From: a virus
Taxonomy: Duplodnaviria; Caudoviricetes
Virus record (IMG/VR): IMGVR_UViG_3300025011_000016
DNA length: 64,000 nucleotides
Direction: 5' to 3' (one strand)
Part shown: one piece after another, positions 10,301 through 55,000 of the stretch
Layout: every line of letters begins with the position of its first letter
Position numbering within the stretch: the first letter of the stretch is position 1
Translations under genes and position numbers: made by a program
The notes under the pieces: generated by a model
What the model saw: the letters and a program-made list of their open reading frames with translations, nothing else
What the model was told of the DNA's origin: nothing
Database searches by the model: none

Positions 10301-12014
10301 AGTAATTACTCATCAATAAGAGAGTTTCTTATTTCGATTTAAGGGATTTTTTTACCCACTCACTTGAGCCCTACTATTTAGTCGTTGAACCTTTCTCTGC
10401 TTAATAGTTATATTCTTTATTAATGTGATTCCAAAGTTTCCTATGCTTTATTGCAATAATTAGTGCGTAAAAACTATTATTTTCTTTCTTTTCTTTATAA
10501 CCATAAAAATTCATAATTTTCATCATAGATAACTTTTGTGTCAGCATATTACATATTTCTCTAATTGTTTCCTCACTATAAACATTATTATTGTTACTAA
10601 TTCCTCTACAATAATTATTCCCATGATCAACCGCGTGTAAATTATTTTCCGAATATGTTGTCCATTCCAAATTTTCAAAATAATTATTTTCAGTATTACT
10701 GTCTTTATGATTTACAATAATCCTCCCGACAGTTTCATCAAAACCTTTACAAAATTCCCATGCAACTAATCGATGCACACCTATATATCTTCTGACATTA
10801 TCATTATCTCTTAAATGTATCTTAACATATCCATTTTTATCTCTAAAATTAATTTTCCGTATTTTATCTTTCTTAATATCAAACACTTTCCCATAATTAC
10901 TAATCATATACCTATCTTTTTGTATATTCGGATAAGTAACTGGCCTGAATTCTTCCTTTTCCATAGCTATTATAATATGCATAGTATCGATTTCCTCCTT
11001 CTTTTATTAATTAGTTTAATTGAATGTATAATCTTATTTAAATATTAAACAGAGACTTGGCTGCGGATTGTCCAATTCTAAACATTATTATCTTAATCTA
11101 GGTTAATTACTCCCAGCCACTATTATAGAAATATAATAGTTTGATAGTCTAGACTCTAAGAGGTTCCCCGCAATTAAAGAAAATCCTATGTGATATCACC
11201 ATCACATAGCCCTAGTTAAAGGTGTACTTGTGAAAATACGTCCATATTGGGCATTATTCCTTTTGGCATTTTGAGAGGCTGTAAGATATGCTGGACCCGA
11301 TGCTTCAACTATAGTTTTAATAAAAAGGGTAAATTCAACTTCATCACAGTACTGAATCGGCTGAGTTGATCCGCGACCGATACCCTCAGCTCCTTCTACT
11401 GAACGAGCCGATGGTTTGGCAATTATTTTATTATTATTAGTTGGGTTGGAGAGAGATTTGACATTGTCGTCACCTTCTACTTTTTTACCCTCATCATTAT
11501 AAACAACTTTAAATTGTAAATATTTAGGTAATAAATCTCTCTGTTTTTTCATTCGCAACAAATTATCATTAGCATCCTCTTGACGCTTATTTAAAAACAT
11601 CATTTCTGAATTTGTTGTCCCGAACAAAAAGCTCCAATCAATAATTGCCAAAGCAGACTGTGTTTTACCTATTTGACGTGGAATTACCTCATATAAATCA
11701 ATTCCATTTAGGAAACACCAAGTAGCAGCTAAATTCGCCCTATTTAATTGATACGGAATTCCAGTTCCACCTTGATCTGGGATTAAACAAACTTCCCTTA
11801 AAAAATACCATGGATTAACAAGACACTCATTAATTATTCTGAATATTTGTTCGTCGGTTAAAAAAGGGGAGTATGGATCGACTCCCCTTAATGACATATC
11901 ATAGAGTTTCAAAAAGAACATATTATTCTTAATACCAAGTTGTCGTAAATCCATTGCAGTCTGTAGAAATGATATATTTCTGGTGTCTACATCATAATCA
12001 AATTTTCTAGCCAT
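7296..12014 (-). CDS. terL: Terminase large subunit, three exons (12014..11220, 10206..9428, 7779..7296), about 685 aa spliced
   Basis: Walker A PRQIGKT, Walker B YCDEVEF; junction FTSTP|GDLDT; nuclease FVGVDTS and HDDSIMS; junction REVM-M|SLLERH. Exon sum 2058 nt is a multiple of 3. Confidence 0.9.
7780..9427 (-). mobile_element. IStron-type element: group I intron carrying tnpB (terminase intron 2, 1648 nt)
   Basis: 5' flank ...TTATGAT; ribozyme core 9427..~9150 (TTAATTGCGGGAA, GGACAATCTGCAGCCAA, GGTTCAACGACTA, GAAGATATAGTC, GAAA-capped P9), then RBS + tnpB, ending ...ACACGACAG. TGT after P7 can pair with ACA before omega-G (P9.0); splicing restores the terL frame. Confidence 0.85.
7826..9064 (-). 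CDS. tnpB: TnpB RNA-guided endonuclease (IS200/IS605/IS607 OrfB family)
   Basis: KTFKTRIRPTKEQ HTH; RuvC I GIDLG, RuvC II VVDEF, zinc finger CSVC/CPQC, RuvC III DRDNNAAINI; catalytic D-E-D intact. Confidence 0.95.
   Translation of the reverse strand: MIKTFKTRIRPTKEQVTYLNKCFGYRRFVYNNTLEYFNKILEFNGNIVDKDLRKFFDKFDFITHIYSKKEKEPGFEWTGEYNKSIKNETVSDVNLAVNKFFKDIKNKQRCKLHFKRKIHGNGSFRIYIKQAAVKILDKNKFSFIINREYGHMELKTYEDISFLYHHEMKTMSISMENFKYYVSFTYEIDNPSHNHEKNTIGIDLGIHNPVVCFDGKDIINPKFPKGKIKKLEKKTDKLSEIVSKKKYDKRNPSKNYIKARTKLNDIHAKIVNIRMDYIQKVSTFLAKTYRNVVVDEFSFKDLLTESDGIKRINRGIHRVGAFTFTQVLKYKCRFYGSEYILAEPNSTITCSVCNHKVKTKMKLSQRVFNCPQCGHIDDRDNNAAINIYNTFKLSLLTNVNKDFAVGRTVQRT
10207..11219 (-). mobile_element. 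Group I intron with HNH homing endonuclease (terminase intron 1, 1013 nt)
   Basis: Core motifs flank the ORF, which lies between the Q and R elements (P6 region); omega-G at 10207; P1 is weak (CCT/GGG) but the frame gives TSTP|GDLDT. Confidence 0.85.
10401..10982 (-). CDS. NUMOD4/HNH homing endonuclease (I-HmuI-like)
   Basis: YMISNYGKV, VHRLVAWEF, VNHKDSNTENNYFENLEW motifs; AAGGAGG RBS inside the intron. Confidence 0.9.
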   Translation of the reverse strand: MHIIIAMEKEEFRPVTYPNIQKDRYMISNYGKVFDIKKDKIRKINFRDKNGYVKIHLRDNDNVRRYIGVHRLVAWEFCKGFDETVGRIIVNHKDSNTENNYFENLEWTTYSENNLHAVDHGNNYCRGISNNNNVYSEETIREICNMLTQKLSMMKIMNFYGYKEKKENNSFYALIIAIKHRKLWNHINKEYNY

Positions 12015-23854: not shown

Positions 23855-26676
23855 TTATGGTCTGGATTTAAAGAAAGAATCTATATAAGAAGCTTCTCTC
23901 TTTTTAAATGTTAATGGATTAATAAGTTGTCGTCCTAATGCCTGGAAGGATAAACCTATTAAGACAGAAGGATGTTTTTCTAATGCGGATTCAACAGTCA
24001 TTATTTGATACTCAGCTTTTTCACCATACTTACTGAAATCCGGTCTATATAAGATATCCTTACTGTGTCTTAATAGAGGGTGTATCAACAATTCACCATG
24101 AACCGCATCTGAATCAATTTTAGATTCGATTAATAGATCTAACATCTTTTGACATAACTCATCAACAGATCTACATCCAACATGATCACTTCTATTAAGT
24201 AAATACATGATGTTATAAAGAGGACGTGTCAATTCGTTATTCTCAATTTCTAATACGAATATCTTAGAATCATCATCAATTTTAGCAAAGTCAATTTCAT
24301 AAGCGTCTTTATGAGATTTACTCTTATTCATTAACTCAACTATATCTGGAGATATATATAAGTCTTTCTGATTCAATTCCATACATTCTATAATCTCACC
24401 AGATTTTTTATGTTTAACATGGAATATAGTTACAAATGTATTGAAATCAGTATCATCATATTCATTAATACTAATAATATTTTTATTAATAATAACTAAA
24501 GAATAATCATTTAAGTTAATGTCGTCATTAGTTATATTAAGAAGAATTTCATTTGCATTAATAGTGAAAAACTTATAGAAATCAGCATTGAATTCTATCT
24601 TTTCCGAAACTGTTGTTAGTAGGTGTTTAGTTGATAATACTCTCTGAGATACAGGTTCTGTTATTCTTGATCCAGCATATCCACCAATAGAGATACCTTT
24701 ATTGGTATGATATAGTTGCCCATAACAATGCCAACATATTCCATCTTTAGCTGAACAAGTTGCTGGAGATTTAACATAGATAGTTTTACCAACAATATTT
24801 TCCTCATGACCTTCAATGACGTTATAATCTCTAGTATTCTCAAGACGATAATATCTTCCCTGTAATCGTCTTAAATGCTCTTTAGTTTTGATTTCGTATT
24901 GAATTGAATGAATGCTATTACATGTTTTAACAGTAGGACTTAATTTTATTCCTGATGTTAAAAGCATTACTAATCGTGCAAACGTATTTTCATATAGATC
25001 GTAAATCCATACAGTTCTCTAATGAACTTCCCTATAACTATATAGGATACAAGACTATATCACCATCCAATGATGGATGATTCTTATTTCAGTTTAACTA
25101 TAAACTTACGAGCTTTTACTCTAGTCGTTGAACCTTTCTCTTAGTAAGAGTATTGGCTGCGGATCGTCCAATCTTCAATTAAGAAGTTCTAAGGAGTTCC
25201 CCGTCAATTAAAGAAATTTTCTCATTATATATTACTATATAATGCCACCTGTAATTGATGGCCAGATCTACCCATACGTAAGTTGACATTATTCGTTACA
25301 TAATGTAGTCCACAAAGAACTCCCTATATTTCTATAGGATACCAGACTATCTCTTCTCATTTAATTAAATGAGTCTCTCCATTTCGATTTAAGAGTTTTC
25401 ACACCCACTCACTTTGAGCTCTAAATTAGTCGTTGAACCTTTCTCTTATTATAAAGAGACTTGGCTGCGGATTATCCAATCTTAAACATTATTACATTAG
25501 TAGTTTAAGCAGTAAGGAACTTCCCGTCAATTAAAAGAGAAATGGCTAAAAATTAACCAGTTTATTCATAATTAATGATTTTCTTCCACCACGATACTTT
25601 CACATAGGTCGTTAATCCATGCAGTTCTCTTATGAACTTCCCTAATATTTATTAGGATACAAGACTATATCACAATCTTCTATATAGAAGATTCCATTAA
25701 TTTCGATATAACTTTATATCTACGAGTCACGCTCTAGTCGTTGAACCTTATTCTTATATAAGAATCTTGGCTGCGGATTGTCCAATCTTCAATTAGAAGT
25801 TCTAAGGAGTTTCCCGTCAATTAAAATAGTTTTACAACATAAGTCCACCTATGCCGCCCCAAGTTGTTTTAGGGAGTCAATATAGTAATTAGTGATGTTG
25901 GATAATCCCCCTACTATGAAGTTACTATTGATCGGATGGGGGATTGTATTTCCAGAAAGATCCGGCTTCAGCCCCCCACTAATTGCGAACTCTGCTAACT
26001 GTTTATGTTTAATCCCAGCACCAGATTTTAGTATTGGCTGTAGCATATTTCCAACAGGATCATTTTCTAAAATGGCAACTTGCTCATGCATTAGATCATC
26101 TAGTAATGATTCTATTTCCGTAGGTTGAAGTCCGTCTGGAATAACCGTTCGTATGATTTCGTTAAATCTAGGTATACGTTCGCTTACGTCAATAAACGTC
26201 TCAATATTAATTGATAACCCCAATATCATATTAAAGTCAGTTGATATTCTAGATAGATTGTGGATCATATCTGCAATTACTTTATTCATTTTAGTATTAC
26301 TGATAATCTTTCTAAATGGTAAAACTATCTTTCTATCAACATATGATTTGATATAATCTGCCGATATCTTACTACAATCAACTATATAAGATTCATTCAA
26401 TCTATCAATATAACCCAACTTCATCATCGGTGACCAAAACATATAATTTGTTAAGAAATGTCTTAATTGGAGAGTATGAATTTGTTCTCCTTCTTTATCT
26501 GAAAATTTAAAATACACTGGGCATGTTCTCAACTCCTTAACTTCAAACCCTCGTTTTAAATAATCATAGAACAACTCTAGATTAGCTTTGTAGTCCTTCT
26601 TAGTAGCCATTAAGTTTGAGATAATAAAGATCTTATTGGATAGCTCACTGATTATTTTTCCTACATCCGAATCCAA
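23855..26676 (-). CDS. Non-virion RNA polymerase beta' C-terminal subunit, four exons (26676..25871, 25591..25556, 25276..25258, 24982..23855), about 662 aa
   Basis: Spliced bridge helix YYIDSL|GGRKSLIMNKLV|MGRSGH|FARLVML; zinc motif CSAKDGICWHCYG; trigger loop AGSRITEPVSQRVLSTKH; region H IGLSFQALGRQL. Exon sum 1989 nt. Confidence 0.9.
24983..25257 (-). ncRNA. ORF-less group I intron (beta'C intron 3, 275 nt)
   Basis: P1 GCCAT/GTGGC; core motifs present; ends GAAAATACG. Confidence 0.9.
25277..25555 (-). ncRNA. ORF-less group I intron (beta'C intron 2, 279 nt)
   Basis: P1 TGGT/GCCA; core motifs present; ends CAACTTACG. Confidence 0.85.
25592..25870 (-). ncRNA. ORF-less group I intron (beta'C intron 1, 279 nt)
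   Basis: P1 CCCT/GGGG; core motifs present; ends GAAAGTATCG. Confidence 0.85.
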
Positions 26677-35829: not shown

Positions 35830-36642
35830 ATGGCGTTTAATACAAATAATGGTCAGAACAATTCACGTGAAGCTGCTAATGTTAACACTAAAGGACTTTC
35901 ATTCTTTAACAAAGATGGATACGATGGTGGAGCCGCATTCTTAATCGGGTATTGGAATGGTCTAATCTCATTGAGGATGCATCCTGCCCTAGAATTGAGC
36001 AAGCAAACTGAAACAAGAAAATTTGATTATGAGAAGGTAGTATCTACCGCGTTGACTCCTGAAAAAGCTTTTATTCTTGCTACAAAAATCGAAAAAGAAA
36101 TTCTTCCGGCTATTGAAAAAGATGAGGCTCATTCCGTTGGTATTCCAGTTGGAAGTGATTCATTGTTGATCGTTTCAACCGGTAAAAAATTAATAGGATC
36201 AATTGCGCCATATATTGCAATTCATAAGTCTCTTGATCCTAAAACCAAACTACCTTCTATGAGTATGTATTATTCATTTAACTCAGACATAAGCATTGAC
36301 AACTACGATGAAACTACCGGCGCATTTGAAATGGGACCTAGTCTCAATGCCGAGCTAATGGTATTCCTTAATGTCTTAAAGACATCCATTATCGGACTCG
36401 GAAACTCAACAGTCCACGCATCACGTTGTGTAGACAAATACTTTAAAGACAAATTAAACAGTGACATCGGTGAAATTGCTGGTAAACTTGGTATAACCAT
36501 TACCGGCCCACAAAAGAATTCATATGGTCGTGGAGATATTTTCTCTAATGGTGGAAGACAGGAGAATTCATCTCGAACTGAACCTCAGACTAATGTTGAA
36601 AATCTGAGTAATATTGATGATATTGAGAAGTTTCTAAACTAG
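35830..36642 (+). CDS. Putative single-stranded DNA-binding protein
   Basis: AGGAGGT RBS; beta-rich core, flexible linker, acidic/hydrophobic tail (NIDDIEKFLN); family call is inference. Confidence 0.4.
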   Translation: MAFNTNNGQNNSREAANVNTKGLSFFNKDGYDGGAAFLIGYWNGLISLRMHPALELSKQTETRKFDYEKVVSTALTPEKAFILATKIEKEILPAIEKDEAHSVGIPVGSDSLLIVSTGKKLIGSIAPYIAIHKSLDPKTKLPSMSMYYSFNSDISIDNYDETTGAFEMGPSLNAELMVFLNVLKTSIIGLGNSTVHASRCVDKYFKDKLNSDIGEIAGKLGITITGPQKNSYGRGDIFSNGGRQENSSRTEPQTNVENLSNIDDIEKFLN

Positions 36643-36643
36643 A

Positions 36644-37028
36644 ATGGGATTTCTTGGTTTTGAATCTAAACGTGAAAAAAATCTTAGGTTACAATTATTA
36701 GATGCTCAAAATGAAATTGGTAGATTAAAAGCCGAGAAGGAAGGTATTCCATTTTTCGGCACAAAATATTCTGATTCTGAGTAAAATTATGTGTTAATAC
36801 GAGACTTATAAATAGTGGCGATAACCAAGCCTGTTAATAATATTTATAAGTTGTAAAAAATCTTTATCGACTAACGTAAATAAAGATTTTCGCCGTTGGT
36901 CGGACGGTTTAAAGAACCTTAAACGGTTAAGTTATTATGGTATCTAACTAATACTACTAACACGACAGGACGATAGAATTAAAATATCCGCCGATGATAT
37001 AAGAAGAAGAGTAAATTCATCTAGATAA
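36644..37028 (+). pseudogene. Small gene interrupted by the IStron relic (5' part 36644..36775, 3' part 36969..37028)
   Basis: MGFLGF...GTKYSD ends in TGAT; joining it to the sequence after ACAG gives an in-frame DDRIKISADDIRRRVNSSR-stop. Confidence 0.45.
36776..36968 (+). mobile_element. Internally deleted IStron relic retaining the omegaRNA-like right end
   Basis: 36860..36970 nearly matches the tnpB 3'/right-end sequence at 7780..7900 and 45540..45651; no tnpB ORF or ribozyme core. Confidence 0.75.
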
Positions 37029-37094
37029 AATTAATAATGGGCTATAAAATAATATAGCCCATTATTTTTTTACTGTTACTAAGGAGGTTATTAT

Positions 37095-37793
37095 TTGTCA
37101 AATGAATTTACAACAAAAGATGAAATTATCTTTATAACATATGATGATGTCATTAAGAGTCGCAATCCATTTATTCTTAATCAAATATTACAAAAGTATA
37201 AATCATATTATAATGATTTCTTAGATTTATCCCAGATAGAGAATTTGAATAAGAAACAACTTGATTTATTTTGTCTTAAACGTCAACATAAAAATATATT
37301 TCATACACTTGCAAAAAAGGAATTTGATTGTAATACGGCTATGAAAGAAATTAGTGATAAATATTATGATATGTTTATTGAATCTGAATTATTGACTATA
37401 GGTAAATCATTGAGCTTTATTCTACATCAAAAATTTACTAAGAAGATATATATTCATAGTCAAGAATATGATAAGAAAATCCACTTAGACATTCAGATGA
37501 ACTATAACGATATGGACAAAGTTAATTATGTCACGGGCAACTTAATTAATGTTATTAATACTATCGATGGTATTACCTCATATATACTTGCTGATATTAT
37601 GGATGTATCAGCTTTATTGGCTACTGATAAGATAGCTTATACTAATATTCTAGTTGCTAACTATGGATACAATTTTACGTATATTGATAATAAGTTAAAT
37701 CTTCGAATGAATTTAGATGACGCTATAAAAGAGAGAATATTTAAATTTGCTACATTCATGCCAATTGATATTGTAAAAAGTGATTTTAAATAA
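37095..37793 (+). CDS. Hypothetical protein, possibly degenerate HAD-like fold
   Basis: IIFITYDDVIK N-terminal motif; AAGGAGG RBS. Confidence 0.45.
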   Translation: MSNEFTTKDEIIFITYDDVIKSRNPFILNQILQKYKSYYNDFLDLSQIENLNKKQLDLFCLKRQHKNIFHTLAKKEFDCNTAMKEISDKYYDMFIESELLTIGKSLSFILHQKFTKKIYIHSQEYDKKIHLDIQMNYNDMDKVNYVTGNLINVINTIDGITSYILADIMDVSALLATDKIAYTNILVANYGYNFTYIDNKLNLRMNLDDAIKERIFKFATFMPIDIVKSDFK

Positions 37794-37867
37794 ACTTAAA
37801 ATATTATAAAATACTACGGGTAAAACAATGTCTTAATGAATCTAACGAAATAATAGGAGGTAAACTA

Positions 37868-39679
37868 ATGGATTATTGTACTGACGGTTGTGGTTATACT
37901 GGTGAGAGTTATAAACGGAGGATTATAAATGGAGAGAACATCTTGAGTAATGAAGTAGTAATGGGCGGTGGTGAATATATTCCACTCGGGTTTCGAGGCA
38001 TACCTGAAGTTAAAAAAAATACAGAGTATCAATGGAATATATTGAGTGAGGACGAGTTTAAACAGCGAATACTCAATGTATTTAGTCAAGTATCATCGGC
38101 TTTAGTGAAAACTCTTGGTCCCTATGGATCTACGACTTTGATCGAACGTTTTGGTGAAATGTGTATCACAAAAGACGGCTGGTCGGTATTGAAGAAGATC
38201 CATTTCACTGAAGAAATTAATAATCATATCTTACAATTGTTATTTAATATAAGCTCGCAAATTATATTAAAAATCGGTGATGGAAGTACATCTTCGATCG
38301 TAGCAGCCGATTCAATTTTCAATAATCTTAGTAAATGTGAGGAATTAAAAACTATTAGATCCAAAGATTTAATGGATGTTGTAAAACATTGTGTTGAGCT
38401 AATAACGGGTATCATCTTAATTAATTCTACTAAGATAGATCCTATTAAAGATCCTGAATTTTCTGATATCTATAAACTTGCTATAATTTCAACGAATGGA
38501 AATAAAGAGGTTTCAGAAATGATACGCTTTATTTATGCCGATACGGGAAATTCCAGTATCGAATTTAATAAATCCAGAACGGGTAAAACTAACTTCGAGA
38601 TAGTTAACGGTTACAAATGCATGATAAATTATATGGACCCGATATTTATTACTAATGATGCGGGTACATGTGATATTACCAAACCGATGATGTTAATGTT
38701 CAATCATAAGATTGAAATGATTCATTATGAGAAAATAATACAACCTCTTATACAAGAGGCTCTTAATTCCGATAGAAGAATTGTTGTGATAGCTCCATAT
38801 TATGATAATCAATTGTTAAATCTAATCCGTCGTAATAGTAATATAGAATTTAGAGCAACTCAAAAATGTACAGTTGTGTATACAAAAGTGGCGTTAATAA
38901 GTGATATGCATAATGAATATTTTAATGATTTCTGTATGATGACCGGAGCTATGATGATTAATGAATCTGCGGCTGAGGATATAATTGAAGGTAAAATTAA
39001 TCTTGAAGAATATGTTGGAGAAGTTGGTAAGATTTCAATCGGCGATAAAACCAGCTTAATAAAAGATTGTTTTAAGATGAATACTGACGAACATCAAAGA
39101 TATATGAATGATGCTGTCTCTAAATATAAACGAGTTGAAGAAACTCACAGTCAACTCGGAGTAGTTAATTCGGAACTATATGATCTCAAACAACGAATTT
39201 CTAAATTACGTGGAAAAATGGGAATAATATCCGTCGGTGGTTATTCCACACTTGAAAAGGATAGTAACTTCGACCTTGTTGAAGATGCGGTTAAATCTTG
39301 TGAATCTGCATATAATTATGGATTCAATATTGGTGGGAATTTGGCGATCCCTATTACTATACAAAAACTATTATGTAATGATTTCGGTATACCTGAACTT
39401 GATAAAATCGTTTTGAGATTATTTGATACTGCTTTCAAAGAAGTATTCTTTAAAGTATTAAAGAATAAATATACTCATGAATCTGATGTATATATTAATA
39501 GTTTAGTAAACGAAGCAATTGATCGGAGACAATGTTGGGATTTGATTAACGAGAAATTCTCCGATGATGTCATCAATTCATGCCATACTGATATTGAGAT
39601 ATTAAAAGCATCAACATCTATAATCTCTTTGCTGATATCTAGTAATCAATATATATCTATTCCACAACCAACTGAATAA
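37868..39679 (+). CDS. groEL: GroEL-like chaperonin
   Basis: TLGPYG, ITKDGWSVLK, IGDGSTS, DLVEDAV motifs; about 55-aa N-terminal extension; late-type promoter 37824..37835; no adjacent groES. Confidence 0.9.
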   Translation: MDYCTDGCGYTGESYKRRIINGENILSNEVVMGGGEYIPLGFRGIPEVKKNTEYQWNILSEDEFKQRILNVFSQVSSALVKTLGPYGSTTLIERFGEMCITKDGWSVLKKIHFTEEINNHILQLLFNISSQIILKIGDGSTSSIVAADSIFNNLSKCEELKTIRSKDLMDVVKHCVELITGIILINSTKIDPIKDPEFSDIYKLAIISTNGNKEVSEMIRFIYADTGNSSIEFNKSRTGKTNFEIVNGYKCMINYMDPIFITNDAGTCDITKPMMLMFNHKIEMIHYEKIIQPLIQEALNSDRRIVVIAPYYDNQLLNLIRRNSNIEFRATQKCTVVYTKVALISDMHNEYFNDFCMMTGAMMINESAAEDIIEGKINLEEYVGEVGKISIGDKTSLIKDCFKMNTDEHQRYMNDAVSKYKRVEETHSQLGVVNSELYDLKQRISKLRGKMGIISVGGYSTLEKDSNFDLVEDAVKSCESAYNYGFNIGGNLAIPITIQKLLCNDFGIPELDKIVLRLFDTAFKEVFFKVLKNKYTHESDVYINSLVNEAIDRRQCWDLINEKFSDDVINSCHTDIEILKASTSIISLLISSNQYISIPQPTE

Positions 39680-39745
39680 TTAACAATTTGGAGATATGAT
39701 TTTGTCATATCTCCAATTATTTACTTTTAAAGGAGGAAATTAATT

Positions 39746-40501
39746 ATGTATATGGCGCAAAATCTTAAAGCCTTTATTAAAAATCCAGCAGGCCCTGGAA
39801 GTACTGCACAAGGTAACATACAAATTATACGAGATGATCTAAATAGAAGATTTCTTAAATTAGTGAAAGAGAAACCTATAACTCTTGATGTGTACAGAGA
39901 CAAAGATGAATATTATTTCCATTTTAAAATACCTAGTGAAACCGAACGAACTAATACATATGATGTGGTACTACATTTCACTATGGGTGAAGATGATTTC
40001 AAATACGACAATTTCATTAATAATTACTATATGATCTTCTTTTCCAATAGTCCTAATTTCGTATATACATTTGCATATACTTATAATGAATATGGTTTAC
40101 TTATTCCTCATTTGGCTAATAAATATAAAGATATCGTTTTAGATCAGAATCCTCTTGTTCGTAACCCCGGCGAAGTCGTTAACTACGATAAATCGATATA
40201 TTTCGCTTGTCATTATATAGAGGAAAATAGAAAATACCTAAATAAAATGCATCTTAATTCTATAGCTAAACCTTTTGACGTTAAGAAGTTTAATGAATTA
40301 ATTAGACCTACGGATAGAATCGACATTGATATAAAGAAAGAGGATAAGCGTCTTAGGGATGAAAAAAGAAAAATTAAAGAAGATGCACTTAAAAAACCTA
40401 AGAAGGTAATTGAAAGAGTTTCTGATACTGTAAAGAGAATAGTACCTCTTAAGAAGATAGTTGCGCGTAAGTCATCTAAACCTAAAATAAAATCTAAATG
40501 A
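39746..40501 (+). CDS. Conserved phage protein with basic C-terminal tail
   Basis: AAGGAGG RBS; lies between the chaperonin and the candidate RNAP specificity subunit. Confidence 0.6.
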   Translation: MYMAQNLKAFIKNPAGPGSTAQGNIQIIRDDLNRRFLKLVKEKPITLDVYRDKDEYYFHFKIPSETERTNTYDVVLHFTMGEDDFKYDNFINNYYMIFFSNSPNFVYTFAYTYNEYGLLIPHLANKYKDIVLDQNPLVRNPGEVVNYDKSIYFACHYIEENRKYLNKMHLNSIAKPFDVKKFNELIRPTDRIDIDIKKEDKRLRDEKRKIKEDALKKPKKVIERVSDTVKRIVPLKKIVARKSSKPKIKSK

Positions 40502-40540
40502 ATTTATATATTATTACTTTAAGAAAACATAAAAGGAGTT

Positions 40541-42630
40541 GTGTTAATGTCAAATGATGATATACGTTCAGTTATATTAGTTGATGAATGGGAACCTGAA
40601 GAAAGGGATGTGATTATCCGACATGATGGAAAACTAGTAATAATACCATTTGACAAAATATTTAACAAGGATAATATAACAAGTTTAAATACTTTTGTTA
40701 TTAAAAAAGAATCATATGTGAAACGTTTGGATCATGTACTGAATAAAGATGGCACTATATCTAAAGGTATATGTCATTATCTAAATTATTTCATTAAGTA
40801 TTATGATTTAGATAATGAGTTATTATTGTCATATATAAAACTCAAATACATTATTGACAATAAGAAAAAGTCTATTAAGTTAATATCTTTCATCAAGATG
40901 TTGTATTCTATTCTGTTTACAGAATCATTAAAGAATAAAATACGACACTTAGTAGAAGACAATTACCATGTTGATGTTACTTCACATAATGGTATTAAAT
41001 ATACCAAATCAATGGAATTTACAAATGAACATGCAAAACTATTAATGATGATCTCAATGAGTATGAAGATAATGGTTCCTATCATATTTCATTTTATCAA
41101 TTCGTCATCTATGTTAAAGGAACCGAATTATATCTTTCAATTTTATGAACGATTGTTCTATATGTATAAATATGATGAAGAGGTTGATATCTATAATAAA
41201 CTATGGGTATCTACATTGGCTAAAGTTAATGTGAATGCTACAAAACATCGAGTTATATGGGACCAGCGAGAAATATTTGGAACAGATCCGTTAATAGAGC
41301 TTGATAAACTATTAAAGGAGAAGATAATTTCTGAAACTATGTTCAAATATACATTTGATAAAAACATTATCAGTTTTAACAGTGTGGTAAAATAATCTAA
41401 TGCCACCTTTTCTTTAACTGACGGGAAGTTCCTTATAGCTTAAACTACTTAATCGTAATAATGTTTAAGATTGGATAATCCGCAGCCAAGATTCTTATAT
41501 AAGAATAAGGTTCAACGACTAGAGTGTGACTCGTAGATCTATAGTTTAGATTGAAATAAGAAAACTCATCTTAATTAAGATGAGAAGATATAGTCTTATA
41601 TCCTATATAACTATAGGGAAGTTCATAAGAGAACTGCATAGATTAACAACCTATGTGAACACGATGCTTAGAAAAACAGCTTGGTTACTTCATACGAGAA
41701 CCTTATGAATTCTCATTAATTGAGTTAAACAATAAAAAAGATCTCGACGGTTTTTTATAGAAGCCGGTTTTCTCTTAACTGACGGGAACTTCCTTATAGC
41801 TTAAACTACTATAAGTAATAATGTTTAAGATTGGACAATCCGCAACCAAGATTCTTAATACAAGAATAAGGTTCAACGACTAGAGTGTGACTCGTAGATT
41901 TATAACTAAATCGAAGTGGAGAAACTTCATAATATTATGAAGAAGATATAGTCTATTATCCTAAAGTAATTTAGGGAAGTTCATAAGAGAACTGTATAGA
42001 GTTATAATCTATATGAATATAAAGTTATCAGGATTAGATAAGCTTGAGATTAACAGTAATAAGATTGATGAATCTTTAATTATATTATCTGGGATTAATA
42101 TAAAGAAAACTATTAAGAGAATTAAGAATAAAATGAAAGTTAAGATCAGTGAAGATGAATTAGAATATTATAAGATCAATCATCACATTAATAAATTTCA
42201 TGTTAGTCTCATATTCTTTTTCTATGCTAGACATTTTGGTAATTATCGAGATCTTAATCTATTAACCCGAAGACAATATTTAACCTTACTAATACTTCTT
42301 AAACGTAAATTACAAATCCAAGGAAATACTTACTTACCCCAGGTTTTAACAAGTAACATTGAAGGTAAATTAAATACTCGTACAATTCAAAATACTAAAT
42401 TCTTAATGAAGATTGAAAATTCTTCTATATATCAATCATTAATGCAAGATAAATTTTCAACTTTAGAAGAATTAAAGAAATCTAATCTAATACTTAATCT
42501 ATTATCAACTATTCTTAATACAACATTTACATGTGTTGATTATGATAATCGAGACAAGTTGGGTACTACATTGGATATTAACTCTGATATGATATCCGAT
42601 GAGTTTCTTAATTTCTTGAATCAATTATAA
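40541..42630 (+). CDS. Candidate nvRNAP promoter-specificity (sigma-like, AR9 gp226/phiKZ gp68-type) subunit, three exons (40541..41388, 41667..41751, 42025..42630), about 512 aa
   Basis: Spliced frame FNSVV|LEKQLGYFIREPYEFSLIELNNKKDLDG|LSGLDKLE; exon sum 1539 nt. Size and position two genes from the chaperonin match my recollection of AR9 g228/g226. Confidence 0.55.
41389..41666 (+). ncRNA. ORF-less group I intron (278 nt)
   Basis: P1 GTGGT/GCCAC; P10 TCTAA pairs with exon TTAGA, fixing omega-G at 41666; core motifs present. Confidence 0.9.
41752..42024 (+). ncRNA. ORF-less group I intron (273 nt)
   Basis: P1 CGGT/GCCG; core motifs present; ends GAATATAAAG; frame restored. Confidence 0.9.
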
Positions 42631-42713
42631 CAAATCATTAATAGTAGTGAATCTTTTCGATTCACTACTATTAATAAGGAGGAATTCTATATGTATATAA
42701 AGATGAATAAATT

Positions 42714-43742
42714 ATGAATAATCTTGAGATGAAAAACCACTTAAGAAATAAATTATTACAAATTCAATCTGCCAAACAAAATGGCCCTAAACAAATCTTA
42801 TTAAGATGTCCAGTTTGTTTAGATTCACAAAAAGATCTTTCACATGGGCATTTTTCTGTTAAGATAGATATGTTCAATGATGAACCTGTAATATTTCATT
42901 GTTTTCGATGTGATATTAGTGGTATTCTCACACCAACTATGTTGCGTTCATTTAAGATTAATGATTTACAATTAAACAGTGGATTATTATCTTATAATAA
43001 AGCATCTTTAGGTACTAATAACAAATCTTTTACTTTATATAATAACAATCTAAATTTAAGAGTTCCAACACCTAGTGATAATGAAAGAACTTCATTAAAA
43101 CAAAAATATATTGAAGGAAGACTGGGTGTAAAATTTACCATAGAAGAATTGGTTAATCTAAAGGTTGTGTTTAATTTAGGAGAATTCTTAAAATTTAATG
43201 GTATTGATACTTTAACTACAAATAAATATAAAGCTAGATTATTACATAATGACTATGTGGGGTTTTTAACTGCGAGAAACGAGTTTATAAATTTCAGAGA
43301 TATTACTGGAAGAAATGAGAGATATGATAAATATAACGTATATAATAATCTGGATAACACTCGAAAGTTTTATACTATACCAAACTCAATAGATCTTTTG
43401 ACGCGTGATAAAATTACTATTAATATAGCTGAAGGTGTTTTTGATATCTTAGGTATATATCATCATTTATACGAAAAGGAACATAAGAATATTATCTATA
43501 CTAGTGTAAATGGTTGTGGTTTTGTATCTGTAATAAAATATTTTATTCAAATGGGAATCTTTGGTAATGTGGATGTAAATATTTATTCTGATAAAGATAA
43601 ATCACCTATATTTTATAAGAAGTTATATTATGAATTAAAAGACTGGATACATACAATTAATCTATTCTATAATGAAATAGGTAAGGATTATGGTGTTACT
43701 AAAGATAAAATAAAGATTATCAAACGAAAAATAGAAAGGTGA
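42714..43742 (+). CDS. DNA primase
   Basis: Zinc-binding CPVC...HCFRC; TOPRIM IAEGVFD and YSDKD. Confidence 0.85.
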   Translation: MNNLEMKNHLRNKLLQIQSAKQNGPKQILLRCPVCLDSQKDLSHGHFSVKIDMFNDEPVIFHCFRCDISGILTPTMLRSFKINDLQLNSGLLSYNKASLGTNNKSFTLYNNNLNLRVPTPSDNERTSLKQKYIEGRLGVKFTIEELVNLKVVFNLGEFLKFNGIDTLTTNKYKARLLHNDYVGFLTARNEFINFRDITGRNERYDKYNVYNNLDNTRKFYTIPNSIDLLTRDKITINIAEGVFDILGIYHHLYEKEHKNIIYTSVNGCGFVSVIKYFIQMGIFGNVDVNIYSDKDKSPIFYKKLYYELKDWIHTINLFYNEIGKDYGVTKDKIKIIKRKIER

Positions 43743-44059
43743 ATTATTATATGAATAAACGTATAACTGAGTTAACACGATATTTTATAAAAGGCTCATT
43801 GGTTGGAGAAATTGTCCCATCTAAAATAGATTCGTTTCTAAATGAATTGAATACCTTAATTATAAAATACTGCGGTGAAAAGTATTATCTTAGTAGTGAA
43901 GTGGAGGCTGTTGACTCTGAGACATATAAGAGTAAAACTGAGGAAATAAATGAAAAAGAAAGTGAAGGATTAGTCACATGTCCATATACCTCAGAATGGT
44001 GTGATAAGCTAAAGGATAAAGAACTTAAGTCAACTTTCATACCTCCTAAAACGACATAA
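43739..44059 (+). CDS. Hypothetical protein
   Basis: Overlaps primase stop (GTGA coupling). Confidence 0.5.
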   Translation: MNYYMNKRITELTRYFIKGSLVGEIVPSKIDSFLNELNTLIIKYCGEKYYLSSEVEAVDSETYKSKTEEINEKESEGLVTCPYTSEWCDKLKDKELKSTFIPPKTT

Positions 44060-44241
44060 AAAATGAAGATGGATAAACGATCATTTAAGATTGTTTATCC
44101 ATCTTCTTATATAAAAAAGAGGAGGACTGTGGGAAAAGGTAGTGAGCAATCTACCCTTTCTTAATTATCTGTTTAGTAAATTATTTACCAATATATAACA
44201 AAAGACATATAATTATTTTTTTTAATTATATGTCTTTTGTT

Positions 44242-45649
44242 ATATAGTCTGTGCTTTAAGGAAACTTAGAGAAATAACTTAATCAGTAGTCTTAATAATT
44301 CATTCCTAATAAGATATTATTATACTTATAACAAATAATATAAGAAAGGGGGTGAAGATAAATGATTAAGACTTTTAAAACGAGAATACGACCAACTAAA
44401 GAACAAGAGATATATTTAAACAAATGCTTTGGATATAGAAGATTCATATACAATAATGCTTTAGAATATTTTAATACCCTTTTAGAGCATAATGGTAATA
44501 TTATTGATAAAACATTAAAGAAGTTCTTTGATAAGTTTGATTATATTACTCATATATACTCTAAGAAAGAAAAGGAACCGGGATTTGAATGGACTCAAGA
44601 GTATAATAAGTCAATAAAGAATGAAGTGGCTAGTGATTTTAATATAGCTATTAATAAGTTCTTTAAAGATATTAAAGACAAGAAACGATGTAAATTACAT
44701 TTTAAAAGAAAGATTCATGGAAATGGTTCTTTTAGAATATACAAGACGAATAAAGGTAATGTTAAAATTATTGATAAGAAGTTATTCTCTTTTATTATTA
44801 ATAGAGAATACGGTCACATGCCATTGAAAACTTTTGAAGATATAAGCTTTTTATATCACTATGATATAAAAACAATGACTATTAGTATGAAGAATTTTAA
44901 ATATTATGTATCATTCACTTATGAAATAGATATCCCAAAGCATAAACATAAGAAAAATATGGTAGGTATAGATTTAGGAATACATAATCCAGTAGTTTGT
45001 TTTGATGGAAACGATATCATAAATCCTAAATTTCCGAAGGGAATTATTAAGAAACTAGAGAAGAAAGTTGATAAACTCTCAGTAATAGTTTCTAAAAAGA
45101 AGTATGATAAACGTAACCCATCAAAGAACTATATAAAAGCGAGAACCAAACTTAATGATATTCACGTCAAAATAGTGAATATCAGAATGGATTATATTCA
45201 GAAGGTATCTACATTCTTAGCTAAGACTTATAGAAACGTAATAGTTGATGAGTTTAGTTTTAAAGAGTTATTAACAGAGTCCGATGGTAATACGCGTATA
45301 AATAGAGGTATACACAGAGTTGGTGACTTTATGTTTACACAGGTGTTAAAATATAAATGTCACTTTTATGGTAGTGAATATATTTTAGCATTACCTAATA
45401 GTACCATTACATGCTCTGAATGTAATCATAAACTTAAAACTAAGTTAAAGTTATCTCAAAGAATCTTTAATTGTCCAATATGCGGACATATAGATGGTAG
45501 GGATAACAATGCTTCTATTAATATTTATAAGTCATTTAAAGGATCTTTATTAACTAACGTAAATAGAGATTTCGCCGTTGGTCGGACGGTTTAAAGAACC
45601 TTAACGGTTAAGTTATTGTGGTATCTAACAAGTACTACTAACACGACAG
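44242..45649 (+). mobile_element. 5'-truncated IStron copy: intron S/P9 remnant + tnpB + right end
   Basis: ATATAGTCTGTGCTTTAAGGAAACTTAGAG matches the terminase IStron just after its P7; upstream ribozyme core absent; ends ACACGACAG. Confidence 0.8.
44362..45594 (+). CDS. tnpB: TnpB, second intact copy
   Basis: About 80-85% identical by eye to 7826..9064; D-E-D catalytic residues intact. Confidence 0.95.
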   Translation: MIKTFKTRIRPTKEQEIYLNKCFGYRRFIYNNALEYFNTLLEHNGNIIDKTLKKFFDKFDYITHIYSKKEKEPGFEWTQEYNKSIKNEVASDFNIAINKFFKDIKDKKRCKLHFKRKIHGNGSFRIYKTNKGNVKIIDKKLFSFIINREYGHMPLKTFEDISFLYHYDIKTMTISMKNFKYYVSFTYEIDIPKHKHKKNMVGIDLGIHNPVVCFDGNDIINPKFPKGIIKKLEKKVDKLSVIVSKKKYDKRNPSKNYIKARTKLNDIHVKIVNIRMDYIQKVSTFLAKTYRNVIVDEFSFKELLTESDGNTRINRGIHRVGDFMFTQVLKYKCHFYGSEYILALPNSTITCSECNHKLKTKLKLSQRIFNCPICGHIDGRDNNASINIYKSFKGSLLTNVNRDFAVGRTV

Positions 45650-46078
45650 GATGGAGATATTGTATTTATTTAATATACCAGTTAATGTATTTACTTGCAA
45701 ATCTGTATTCAATTCAGGAAAATTCTCTAAAATCTCAAGTTTGAGTAAATCAAGATAAAGGGACGGCATAGTATGGCACAACTCCTTCCTATTTCTAGTA
45801 AGAGTATACCATACTAATGCCGTCAAATGCAACCCATATTGCTTGGATCAATAGATAAATATTTATTTTTATCGTATATATTATTAAAAATCTCTTCTTT
45901 ATAAATGTTTAAAATTAATTCATTCATCATATCATTACTTCCTTTCGTTATCAAATAATTAATAATTTGTTATCACGAAAGTAACTAATAATTCACGATT
46001 TGACAATTTATTAATTATGTCGTATAATGCGTCAACTACGACATTAAATCTACCAAAGATGGATCTGAATTTACAGAG

Positions 46079-46261
46079 TTAGTCACCAATTCCTGCAGGT
46101 ATTCCGCAACCAAACCATATTATTTTGGGACAATGCTCACATGATAAACAAATTCCTCGTCGTGAATATTCACCCTGTTTCGGACATTTCACATCTTTTT
46201 TGGCATAACAATATTCTTGCATTTTTTTATTGCTCAAAATATTTTTCACCCACCTTCCCAT
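46079..46261 (-). CDS. Small Cys-rich protein
   Basis: GGAAGG RBS; six Cys including CLSCEHC. Confidence 0.5.
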   Translation of the reverse strand: MGRWVKNILSNKKMQEYCYAKKDVKCPKQGEYSRRGICLSCEHCPKIIWFGCGIPAGIGD

Positions 46262-46282
46262 AATAAAAGAGCCTTTCGGCTC

Positions 46283-46531
46283 TTATAATCTGCACACACT
46301 TAATACATTTTCTAATCCTAATATCTCAATTGCTTTAGTTAAGACAATTTCAGATTTATCATTATCGTGATAAGTGCATCTACCATTTTTATATGCACCA
46401 CAACAACTGCAATTTGAACCACTTAAAAAACATGAGCTTAAACGAAATGTAAACGGGTTTTCCTTTTTACTATCTAGTTTTTTTAAATACTCTGTTAGGG
46501 ATTCGATAGAACTCATATTATTACCTCCCAA
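46283..46531 (-). CDS. Small Cys-rich protein
   Basis: GGAGG RBS before MSSIE; CFLSGSNCSCC...C cluster. Confidence 0.5.
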   Translation of the reverse strand: MGGNNMSSIESLTEYLKKLDSKKENPFTFRLSSCFLSGSNCSCCGAYKNGRCTYHDNDKSEIVLTKAIEILGLENVLSVCRL

Positions 46532-52020: not shown

Positions 52021-55000
52021 TTAATCATTTTCGAAACGTGTCATCATATATAGTGTATGAACACCCTCATTGGTTGTCTTTCTCATATTACTACCAGCGA
52101 TATTTAGAATATGAGCTTTAGATGTCATAATTTCAATAGCTTCTTTATTAGCTTCTTGACTAAATAAACCCTTTACTGTAACCTGATCCAAAATATTCAT
52201 ATAGATATTTAATCCATACAGTTCTCTTATGAACTTCCCTATATTAATATAGGATATTAGACTATCTCTTCAATAGAATAAATCTATTGTTTTCCCATTT
52301 CGATATATAACTATATCTACGAATTACTTCTAGTCGTTGAACCTTTCTCTTATATAAGAGACTTGGCTGCGGATTGTCCAATCTTCCATTAAAGAAGCTA
52401 TAAGGAGTTTCCCGACAGTTAAGGAAAATACGGCAATACAATGACCGTCGTACATGTAAACTCCATATTTTCATATGGCATGGACTATATCTTCACCGTA
52501 TAATAATAAATTATTAATTAGGTGTCCTGCACTTCCCAACTAACCCACAAATTAGTCAGTACACTACTAACTACTATATAATTATATGATAGTAATTTTC
52601 GTTAGTCTCTACATCTTCTCTAATTAATTTACATATTTTCACATATTGTAATTTTAACATGGGGGTTTTTATTTTGGGTGTATCATTTAGTTTAGACTCT
52701 ATTTTAATCAATATTTCATTACGGGAATTTTTATCACAATAGAATACAAAATATCCTTGAATAATACGTCCAAATCGAACCGCATGAGTTACAGAACTTT
52801 TATTACTATCTATTGAATCAGCAAATGACTTCGCTCCTTGGAATATATGAAATAACCCATCTTTAAATGCAATTATAGGTTTAGATTTATCTCGTTTAGT
52901 TTGTTCAGAATGTCTAAATAATTTTGTACTTTCACTCATCTTATATTTAGACTCACTATTCATAGTTCCACCGACCCCACCTGTTTTCTTATTATATCCA
53001 ATATTAGGATCATTTGCTTTTAAAGTTGATATCCAATATACCTCTTTTTCGTTCATTTCATTTTTAGAGGTGCATGTGTCTATTATACTGCAATCAAAAT
53101 TATTAAATCCATATTCATTAACTATTTTTATAATATGATATAAATTCGATTTCCTATTAAGCTTTTTATACTTATAATCCTTAAGTCGTGAATGTAGATT
53201 TATTGTCTGACCAATATAAATTTTACCATCTATATTATTTCTCAACATATATATTACACCAAAATGTTTTTTCGATTCAATTATTAGATCATCATTATAC
53301 ATAATAACCCCCCTTATTATATATAAGTTAGTATAAAAGTATTTTTTTACAATATATGAATTTCGTAAATCAATTAAAGCTTGACACGGTATTTCCAGCT
53401 ATCCATATTTCAGGACCTTAGGTTCTCTTACGAAGCTTATTCGTCAATGCTTATTTCACTTCTACCGTTAGCATGAGTATTGTGATACCCATACACCGCC
53501 TGTTAAGCGTTCACAGGATTTTTAACTAAGCTATTTCTAGCAAAGGGAGACAACAACTTTTATCTCCGTTTAAACCAGGTAGATATAAATTTGACATACT
53601 CACAGTATCTGCAAATAGAGTGGATATTTCTTCTTTAGGTAAACTAAGATCGATCCTAGGATAATTCGTATAGACTCTATTTCCAATAAACATCGGTATA
53701 GTTTGGTGGGTACTTAGGACTGATATTTTGTTAGGAAAGCTACTGAAATAATCTGAAATAGGATATCTCGTAACGAATACCATTTTATCTGATGTAACAT
53801 CAACTGCCGCTTGATATAAAATATCACACCAAGTTGCCTTCCTTTGTACTAAGGGAGATTCAGTTTCAGGAACCCCTGGTTTATAATCTTTTCCTATAAA
53901 TCGCATATATAATTTCTTCCCATCAGATCTAGGTTCCTCGACGGGAAGTTCAATTGGTGTAAATCTATCGGATACACTAAATATGAATCTATCAATTTGT
54001 TTTTTAAGATATTCTTCGTTGAAATATAATGAGGGATCTTTTAATTTCACATATCCCATGGAACCGTCCGGATTTCTTACAGGATACTTATTACCAACCT
54101 TCTCTAATTCTCTATGGAAGAAATTTTTAACCCAATTTATTATAAATGGTGTAAATAATGAACATGTTTGTGCAAGAGGAATACCAACATGATAAAAATC
54201 TATTTGCATCTCAGATGGTTTATTTGCTTTGAATATAGGTGCAGAAATTCGTTTATTCATATAGAATATAACTCTATACAGTTCTCTCATGAACTTCCCT
54301 AATTTTCATTAGGATACTAGACTATATCTTCAGGAAATTAAGAATTCCTGAACTCCCATTTCAATACAATAATGTATCTAACTCACGGTAAATTAATATA
54401 ACCATATTTCCGTGTGATAGTCGTTGAACCTTATTCTATTAGATAGAATCTTGGCTGCGGATTGTCCAAACTTAAACATTGTTACTTTAAGTGGTTTAAG
54501 TTCTAAGGAGATTCCCGACAATTAAGGAGCTACGTGCAGTAAATCCACACTCCTCGATCCGAAATCAACCGATTTACCCATTAAATTTTTTCTAATTAAT
54601 CCATTCTTCTTTTCTATTCTACCTTTGAGCAAATCATAAATTTCTACTAAGACTTCCTGAACCTTAGCCCTAGTTCCATTAAGTACAAAATCAAAATTAT
54701 TGGAGTTCCTCAACACAGTTGCGAATCTTAATAATTTAGCGTACTTATCATTGATCTCATGATGACTAATCTTACCCTGTGTTGCTGATTGTAAATTAAC
54801 ATCACGATAGAATGCTGGCACTACAATCCAGTACTCAGTAAATAAAGTATCTTTATCATACGATCTCAGCAAGTCAATTCTTTCACTACGTATAGAACTG
54901 GCATTCTTTTCAAAGTTTATTTTTTCCCAATTTTTATATAAGAATTCTAATCCAGTCTCACCAGATTCCTCAGCTTCAACCAATTGTCCATTTTTATCTA

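Follow-up and report, generated by a model that had tools for sequence, protein, structure and literature searches.

Group A (IS200/IS605-type) IStrons are exemplified by CdISt1 and the CdiIStrons of Clostridioides difficile (Tourasse 2014, PMC4227781; Zedaveinyte 2023, 10.1101/2023.11.20.567912). These elements insert after TTGAT and end in TCAG (PMC4227781; 10.1101/2023.11.20.567912), and in a survey of bacterial IStrons the IS part degenerates and splicing is always kept (Tourasse 2014, PMC4227781). PATEs derive from IS200/IS605 elements and have no ORF; many of them specify an omegaRNA on which TnpB can draw in trans (Meers 2023, PMC10055086). The legend to Fig. S3B of a second study describes one with IStron ends in C. 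difficile (10.1101/2023.11.20.567912). The right end of the CboIStron comprises five stem-loops, the first of which is dispensable, and only its last 18 nt serve splicing, the rest being guide RNA (Mortman and Sternberg 2026, PMC13521648). IStrons, their degenerate forms, ORF-less guide-RNA IS605 miniatures and, as far as that legend goes, a miniature with IStron ends are already known (PMC4227781; PMC10055086; 10.1101/2023.11.20.567912).

The stretch of DNA analysed here (the window; 64,000 nucleotides of IMG/VR record IMGVR_UViG_3300025011_000016) is AT-rich phage DNA. It contains, inside a small phage gene at positions 36776-36968, a 193-nt IStron remnant; its family, which combines TnpB with a group I intron, is also that of the two intact tnpB copies of the window. 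The remnant is an internally deleted IStron at the family's canonical site, and both the ribozyme and the nuclease gene have been lost. A 270-aa protein encoded next to it is found on groundwater metagenome contigs of up to 272 kb. Blastn and tblastn comparison of the locus and its neighbours with 50,697 GenBank phage records returned nothing similar, and a search of IMG/VR with the 270-aa neighbour and a right-end 21-mer gave no match.

The parent family of the remnant resembles the group A IStrons in having a 5' group I ribozyme, a tnpB gene and a right end that is both 3' splice site and guide RNA, as well as a TTGAT-like pentamer, a (T/A)CAG end and exact restoration of the host ORF. Unlike the C. 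difficile IStrons, it sits in a lytic-type jumbo phage from groundwater. The remnant reverses the order of decay seen in the bacterial survey, its ribozyme being gone and its guide-RNA end kept, and of the hallmarks of an IStron it lacks the ribozyme and tnpB but shows ORF restoration and an empty site in relatives. As in PATEs, there is no ORF, the right-end module is joined to its own flank as guide, and any function would need TnpB from elsewhere; unlike PATEs, the remnant has no recognisable left-end hairpin, is single in the window and lies inside a phage coding gene. The five-stem-loop layout is common to the remnant and the CboIStron, and stem-loop 1, dispensable there, is the diverged part here. 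The CboIStron is of the IS607 type, with a TGGG motif and no sequence similarity, and the parallel is one of layout only. What is unusual in the remnant is the jumbo-phage host and the direction of decay.

Copies of the IStron and their insertion sites

By its sequence the parent element is an IStron, with a group I ribozyme, tnpB and a predicted guide-RNA right end. Copy A (7780-9427, minus strand; Rfam RF00028 and Pfam) is a full element of 1648 nt, in which the ribozyme (RF00028, 9155-9437, 83.9 bits) lies directly upstream of tnpB (7826-9064). It splits its host gene in frame, and the joined exons form a 336-aa ORF. Copy B (44242-45649, plus strand) is intergenic and 5'-truncated, with an intact tnpB (44362-45594) and right end, and keeps only the last ~30 nt of the ribozyme. 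Its homology to full IStrons starts abruptly at 44242, inside the J8/7-P7 segment of the ribozyme, and within 44199-44249 this start directly follows a perfect 18-bp terminator hairpin, in a region of convergent genes.

The TnpB proteins of copies A and B are full-length, with three Pfam TnpB domains each. In copy B the zinc-finger cysteines are present, and D204, D296/E297 and D381 presumably occupy the nuclease-motif positions, as judged from the catalytic triad of ISDra2. In TnpB of the ISDra2 type, RuvC-II is of the V-E-D-L type (usually xED). RuvC-II of the window TnpBs reads V-I-V-D-E-F (44362-45594, residues 293-298), in which either acidic residue may be the catalytic one, and this departure weighs against guide use of the remnant.

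Further tnpB paralogues, with protein identities of 84-89%, were fetched from contigs of the same phage population. In copy C (L032:2120-3788) and copy D (L035:2138-3787), alignment reveals that the ribozyme sequence of copy A recurs upstream of tnpB. Removal of copy C at GAT^TC...ACAG^ (where ^ marks a junction) joins a 695-aa ORF of an NAD-ligase-like gene, and removal of copy D joins a 390-aa ORF for a RecD/PIF1-like helicase, in which the downstream exon supplies the UvrD_C_2 domain. A further contig compared with that of copy D (L034:3614-3952 versus L035:3787-4100) has the same helicase exon 1, nearly the same IStron and an unrelated right flank, and the helicase ORF is restored only in L035, not in L034; the latter may have arisen by recombination between copies, or else the assembly joined unrelated sequences across the repeat. 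Scanning metagenomes with a right-end 17-mer gave 19 loci, of which a fragment of copy B (L024) is the only real one and the others are chance matches, so that the scan added no stand-alone right end.

The window is rich in related introns. Rfam reports seven group I introns of one family in the 64 kb, namely that of copy A (9155-9437, minus strand) and six more, at 358-641 on the plus strand and at 25030-25267, 25322-25565, 25640-25880, 52237-52453 and 54297-54575 on the minus strand. Three of them stand in tandem within 850 nt (25030-25880), separated by exons of ~55-75 nt. Repeat families D1-D11, which share the same P7/P9 and P3-P8 motifs, point to further intron-like copies at 41414-41660 and 41775-42020 (plus strand) and at 10250-10408 and 11043-11202 (minus strand). 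These four go unreported by Rfam, the pair at 41.4-42.0 kb even at E<=1.

Six right ends could be compared, three from the window and three from other contigs of the same phage population; they are identical through CACGACAG and unrelated thereafter. Within the window GGTATCTAACNANTACTACTAACACGACAG is present at exactly three places, with its end at 36968 (plus), 45649 (plus) and 7780 (minus), where chance predicts 0 occurrences, and the final 30 nt of the element (GGTATCTAAC.A.TACTACTAACACGACAG) are likewise found at three window sites with these same ends. Chance similarity between the remnant and the right ends was considered and ruled out, none of the three exact occurrences being expected.

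The left junctions read ATGAT^TC in copy A, TTGAT^TC in copy D, TAGAT^TC in copy C and CTGAT^TC in the remnant. An initial sequence-only reading of the window had drawn attention to TGAT at 36772-36775, which can be read directly in the sequence; on the evidence of the four left junctions, CTGAT (36771-36775, plus strand) is the TAM-like target motif adjoining the left end and is also the end of the 5' exon. The remnant thus has the site expected of a group A IStron, CTGAT^TC...ACAG^, as do copies A, C and D. The suggestion that the remnant fixes the boundaries of the element proved correct, the right end being ACAG^ in six copies and the left GAT^TC being shared with the three ribozyme-bearing copies. 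The same reading placed the insertion at TGAT^GA. Here TGAT^ is borne out, but GA is not required: the two bases after ACAG are GA in copy A, copy B and the remnant, TT in copy C, AT in L034 and TA in L035. We therefore reject GA as a part of the element or of its target and regard its recurrence after the cut as coincidental. The boundaries and the empty site TGAT^ are secured by the six right ends, the four left ends, the uninterrupted genes of relatives and the ungapped join described below. That the element has moved is also upheld, the family occupying at least five different sites.

Because the element is an IStron, TGAT doubles as the 5' exon end that pairs with the internal guide of the intron. 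In full copies the exon end and the following TC can pair with GAGTCA, the internal guide, a few bases downstream (helix P1). Copy C combines an AGAT exon with a GAGTCT guide, and copies A and D combine TGAT with GAGTCA, a compensatory change (L032:2108-2145 compared with window 9400-9435, minus strand, and L035:2126-2160). Judged from these sequences, the compensation fits target choice, or adaptation to the target, through P1 pairing.

The remnant and the small gene it interrupts

The 5' part of a small conserved gene, codons 1-44, lies at 36644-36775 (plus strand; ORF list and orthologues in relatives). Its present ORF ends at 36784 and encodes 46 aa, the Ser-Glu-stop coming from the remnant. 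The 3' part of the gene, 19 codons and a stop at 36969-37028 (plus strand), is in frame with 36644-36775 and cut off from translation. Joining 36775 to 36969 restores the frame, as the sequence-only reading had pointed out, to give a 63-aa ORF (...KYSD^DDRIKISADDIRRRVNSSR and a stop codon).

An uninterrupted gene of about this length, which that reading had proposed to look for in relatives, does exist. It encodes 62 aa in L007, L008 and L009, where it lies between the same two neighbours (the neighbouring gene of L007 being 65% identical), and 49 aa in L036, a more distant IMG/VR phage (L036:2001-2150, 62% identity, ending ...FFGTRYEDDYRNK). Residues 1-47 of the joined ORF align without a gap to L007:2521-2709 at 70% identity, and this alignment runs across the join, with ...FFGTKYSD^DDR facing ...FFGTRYMDDDR; after the join, 8 of 9 DNA bases match. 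Past the join only DDR is common to the small gene and L007. The protein is conserved from residue 1 to ~47, and its tail differs in every lineage. When a large protein index was searched with the small protein, the query itself was the sole match. The small MGFLGFES... gene is absent from L010-L012, in which the neighbour gene is ~53% identical and a 70-nt spacer stands instead (3801-3871), indicating that the gene is dispensable at that evolutionary distance. An insertion that is predicted not to splice would be tolerated here because only the variable tail is lost, 19 residues giving way to Ser-Glu-stop.

The remnant reads in the direction of its operon, with the 270-aa gene upstream of it. 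Downstream stands the intrinsic terminator of the operon (37033-37066, plus strand), a 14-bp stem with a T run 65 nt past the right end. L007 has an analogous hairpin after its ORF.

Most of the remnant is a right end. Alignment with the right ends of the intact copies covers its final 166 nt, of which the last 112 are 90-94% identical to them; blastn matches 36803-36970 to this end of copy B over 170 nt (85.9% identity). From its position 28 onward the remnant aligns to the last 165 nt of the 1648-nt copy A, so that ~1.45 kb is missing. The earlier description of a relic without tnpB or ribozyme holds, in that there is no tnpB ORF and that Rfam finds no group I match across 36000-46500, even at E<=1. 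The trace of tnpB that is left corresponds to about the last 35 codons only, diverged and out of frame.

Comparison by eye with intact left ends suggests that 36776-36802 (plus strand) is a vestigial left end, made up of TC, then TGAGTAA, then AT-rich sequence of uncertain origin. TGAGTAA looks like the internal guide ATGAGTCA of the intact copies with the P1 loop deleted. The poor match of this part to the intact left end, already conceded in the sequence-only reading, is real: no significant similarity links the first 30 nt with the initial 100 nt of copy A, C or D.

Next comes a diverged stem-loop 1 of the right-end RNA (36803-36852, plus strand), formerly part of tnpB (~last 35 codons) and now noncoding, in which, according to the alignments, 14 of 15 hairpin pairs are kept. 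The RNAalifold consensus assigns the conserved core of the predicted omegaRNA scaffold to 36858-36961 (plus strand), with stem-loops 2, 3, 4 and 5 at 36858-36890, 36892-36908, 36915-36928 and 36931-36961. The terminal ACGACAG (36962-36968, plus strand) is identical in the six copies and forms the right-end boundary, its final G being the last base of the intron in full copies. By its position beside the right end and the TnpB/omegaRNA model (PMC10055086), GACGATAGAATTAAAATATC (36969-36988, plus strand) would be the guide-equivalent flank. It is unique within the window, and the sequence that follows ACAG (GACGATAGAATT...) is, as first remarked, unlike the flanks of copies A and B except in the first two bases. 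An Rfam search of the right ends matched no guide-RNA-type family.

This anatomy bears on two other accounts of the locus. We consider it extremely improbable that the remnant is a miniature intron still removed from the mRNA, so that the small gene would be whole at the RNA level. The open, in-frame 19 codons downstream are weak evidence for such splicing, and a U still precedes the 5' cut and a G still stands last. However, the ribozyme core is absent, the P1 hairpin cannot form because there is a single base between the end of the exon and the vestige of the internal guide, and at 193 nt the remnant is shorter than any family intron in the window (217-284 nt). With no ribozyme, and with the left 27 nt a mere vestige, the remnant is predicted from its sequence to be incapable of splicing.

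A PATE-type mobilisable miniature, which would have transposed when already short with a transposase from elsewhere, is highly unlikely. Such an origin would agree with the exact ends of the element, and ORF-less IS605 derivatives have been described, one of them with IStron ends according to the figure legend cited above (PMC10055086; 10.1101/2023.11.20.567912, Fig. S3B). Against it, nothing in the left 27 nt significantly resembles the left end of the family, which means that the hairpin needed by the transposase is missing, and a covariance model of the right end finds no second short-form copy in the window. With respect to the hairpins of a PATE, those of the right end are kept, and the left 27-30 nt have no significant match in the parent.

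Uneven decay of the right-end RNA

The remnant can be divided into 60 upstream columns (36800-36856), which correspond to the formerly coding stem-loop 1, and the 112 columns of the core (36857-36968), which correspond to stem-loops 2-5. States unique to the remnant occupy 16 of the 60 upstream columns and 5 of the 112 core columns (Fisher p=4.7e-5). Upstream, the remnant differs from the intact copies at 18-23 of 60 columns, compared with 1-10 differences between the intact copies themselves. In the core it differs from them at only 7-11 of 112 columns, in line with the early observation of ~110 nt nearly identical to the tnpB 3' end, and the intact copies differ from each other at 4-9. The remnant core is identical to no sampled copy, and no single intact copy is closest by a wide margin. 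It is no nearer to any intact copy than these are to one another, which argues against a very recent copy-over.

The predicted fold of the right-end RNA consists of five stem-loops and the tail ACGACAG. The remnant keeps 46 of the 49 pairs of the structure predicted from all six sequences (45-49 in the intact copies) and 45 of the 50 pairs predicted from the five intact copies alone. With a covariance model of the final 113 positions the remnant reaches 124 bits and the intact copies 135-137 bits; searching the window and the fetched loci with this model yielded no additional right-end copy and no second short form. Substitutions unique to the remnant are mostly pairing-preserving transitions in paired columns and mostly transversions in unpaired columns. 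This contrast has p=0.015 with the six-sequence structure and a marginal p=0.057 with the structure predicted without the remnant, and the six right ends are too alike to hold more than a trace of true covariation. The segment fits the pattern of an omegaRNA, a structured scaffold that spans the 3' end of tnpB and the right end and continues into the flanking guide: it is homologous to the right ends of five tnpB-bearing copies, and most of the predicted pairs are kept.

The same internally deleted IStron could be an inert fossil, whose RNA has no function and whose core is conserved through youth or through overwriting by recombination, and we give this account serious weight, somewhat short of an even chance. 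Decay is the default outcome for mobile elements and favours it, and the genome offers a decay series, with the full copy A and the 5'-truncated copy B. Two variant states of the remnant are each shared with a different intact copy, and single shared states of this kind suggest exchange. Donors for such exchange appear plentiful. In contigs from source-sample runs X1/X2, examined over 36865-36970, the summed depth over 36865-36935 is ~14 times that of the flanks (727 versus 52), and in these contigs at least four further flanks begin at 36968 or 36970. The sample thus contains right-end copies well in excess of the three of the window. A candidate joint from 36968 to 37548, with a 28-nt side at 80% likeness, was set aside as the flank of another copy or noise.

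The uneven divergence could itself reflect a messy deletion or repair upstream, or patchy gene conversion among right ends. If the ~30% upstream divergence is neutral, however, something further has to account for the 6-10% in the neighbouring 112 columns. The failure of the core to match any sampled copy exactly also speaks against an inert fossil, as does base pairing kept as well as in the intact copies.

Origin and possible guide use

The origin we favour begins with an IStron that inserted by the normal route of the family, after CTGAT in the small phage gene. Some 1.45 kb of its interior, comprising the ribozyme and nearly all of tnpB, was lost at insertion or while the element was being copied. 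The surviving parts are the vestigial left end and the complete right-end module, with its five stem-loops and ACAG, followed by the native flank. Speculatively, copying that was interrupted during repair from a full-length donor would explain why both tips and the right end were kept.

The sequence-only reading had further suggested that the remnant might serve as a trans-acting guide for the two intact TnpBs. We infer that the remnant is transcribed together with the operon, since it runs in the same direction as the genes on either side and is followed by the terminator at 37033-37066. TnpB from the intact copies may then load the remnant RNA, and the 3' flank GACGATAGAATTAAAATATC would act as guide, directing TnpB to cut the remnant-free allele (CTGAT followed by GACGATAGAATT...) in relatives that infect the same cell. 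Repair by recombination, with the remnant-bearing genome as template, would copy the remnant and nearby markers into the rival genome, making the remnant a non-autonomous hitch-hiker on TnpB. That this IStron deletion product supplies an RNA that guides TnpB made elsewhere is plausible, at about an even chance, given the uneven conservation, the 45 of 50 pairs kept and the co-orientation with the operon.

The target of a TnpB omegaRNA is the TAM followed by the flank, that is, the empty site. The empty site of the remnant would read CTGAT+GACGATAGA..., and the occupied locus has ACAG, which is not a TAM, before the guide and would thus be protected. The guide had been called new, and its flank does differ from those of the other copies, but it is simply what flanks the remnant where it inserted, and the same holds for every IS605/IStron copy. 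Its predicted target is the remnant-free allele of the same small gene and no new kind of target. The proposed search for this guide preceded by TGAT in phage and host genomes came up empty in the rest of the window, in IMG/VR and in 185,579 prokaryote genomes. None of the source-sample contigs skips 36776-36968; contigs drop rare variants and hence are uninformative on empty alleles.

A broader proposition is that the phage keeps right ends lacking nuclease and intron as extra guide RNAs for TnpB. We regard this as unlikely. If it is true, the phage could use several guides encoded away from the nuclease gene to cut relatives in the same cell and so convert or exclude them. Such an arrangement would stand, in nature, midway between the guide tied to a transposon and a CRISPR-like set of trans-acting guides.

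The ends and target motif of the phage IStron family are now cleanly defined and independently checked, as (T/A)GAT ^ TC ... ACAG ^, and the family has colonised a non-essential small gene besides essential ones. If the remnant is inert, it is a datable fossil of IStron decay that is useful for annotation. Should its RNA function, the remnant would exemplify a viral guide RNA that is naturally kept apart from the nuclease gene, and would bear on the origin of trans-acting-guide systems from TnpB and on competition of phage against phage.
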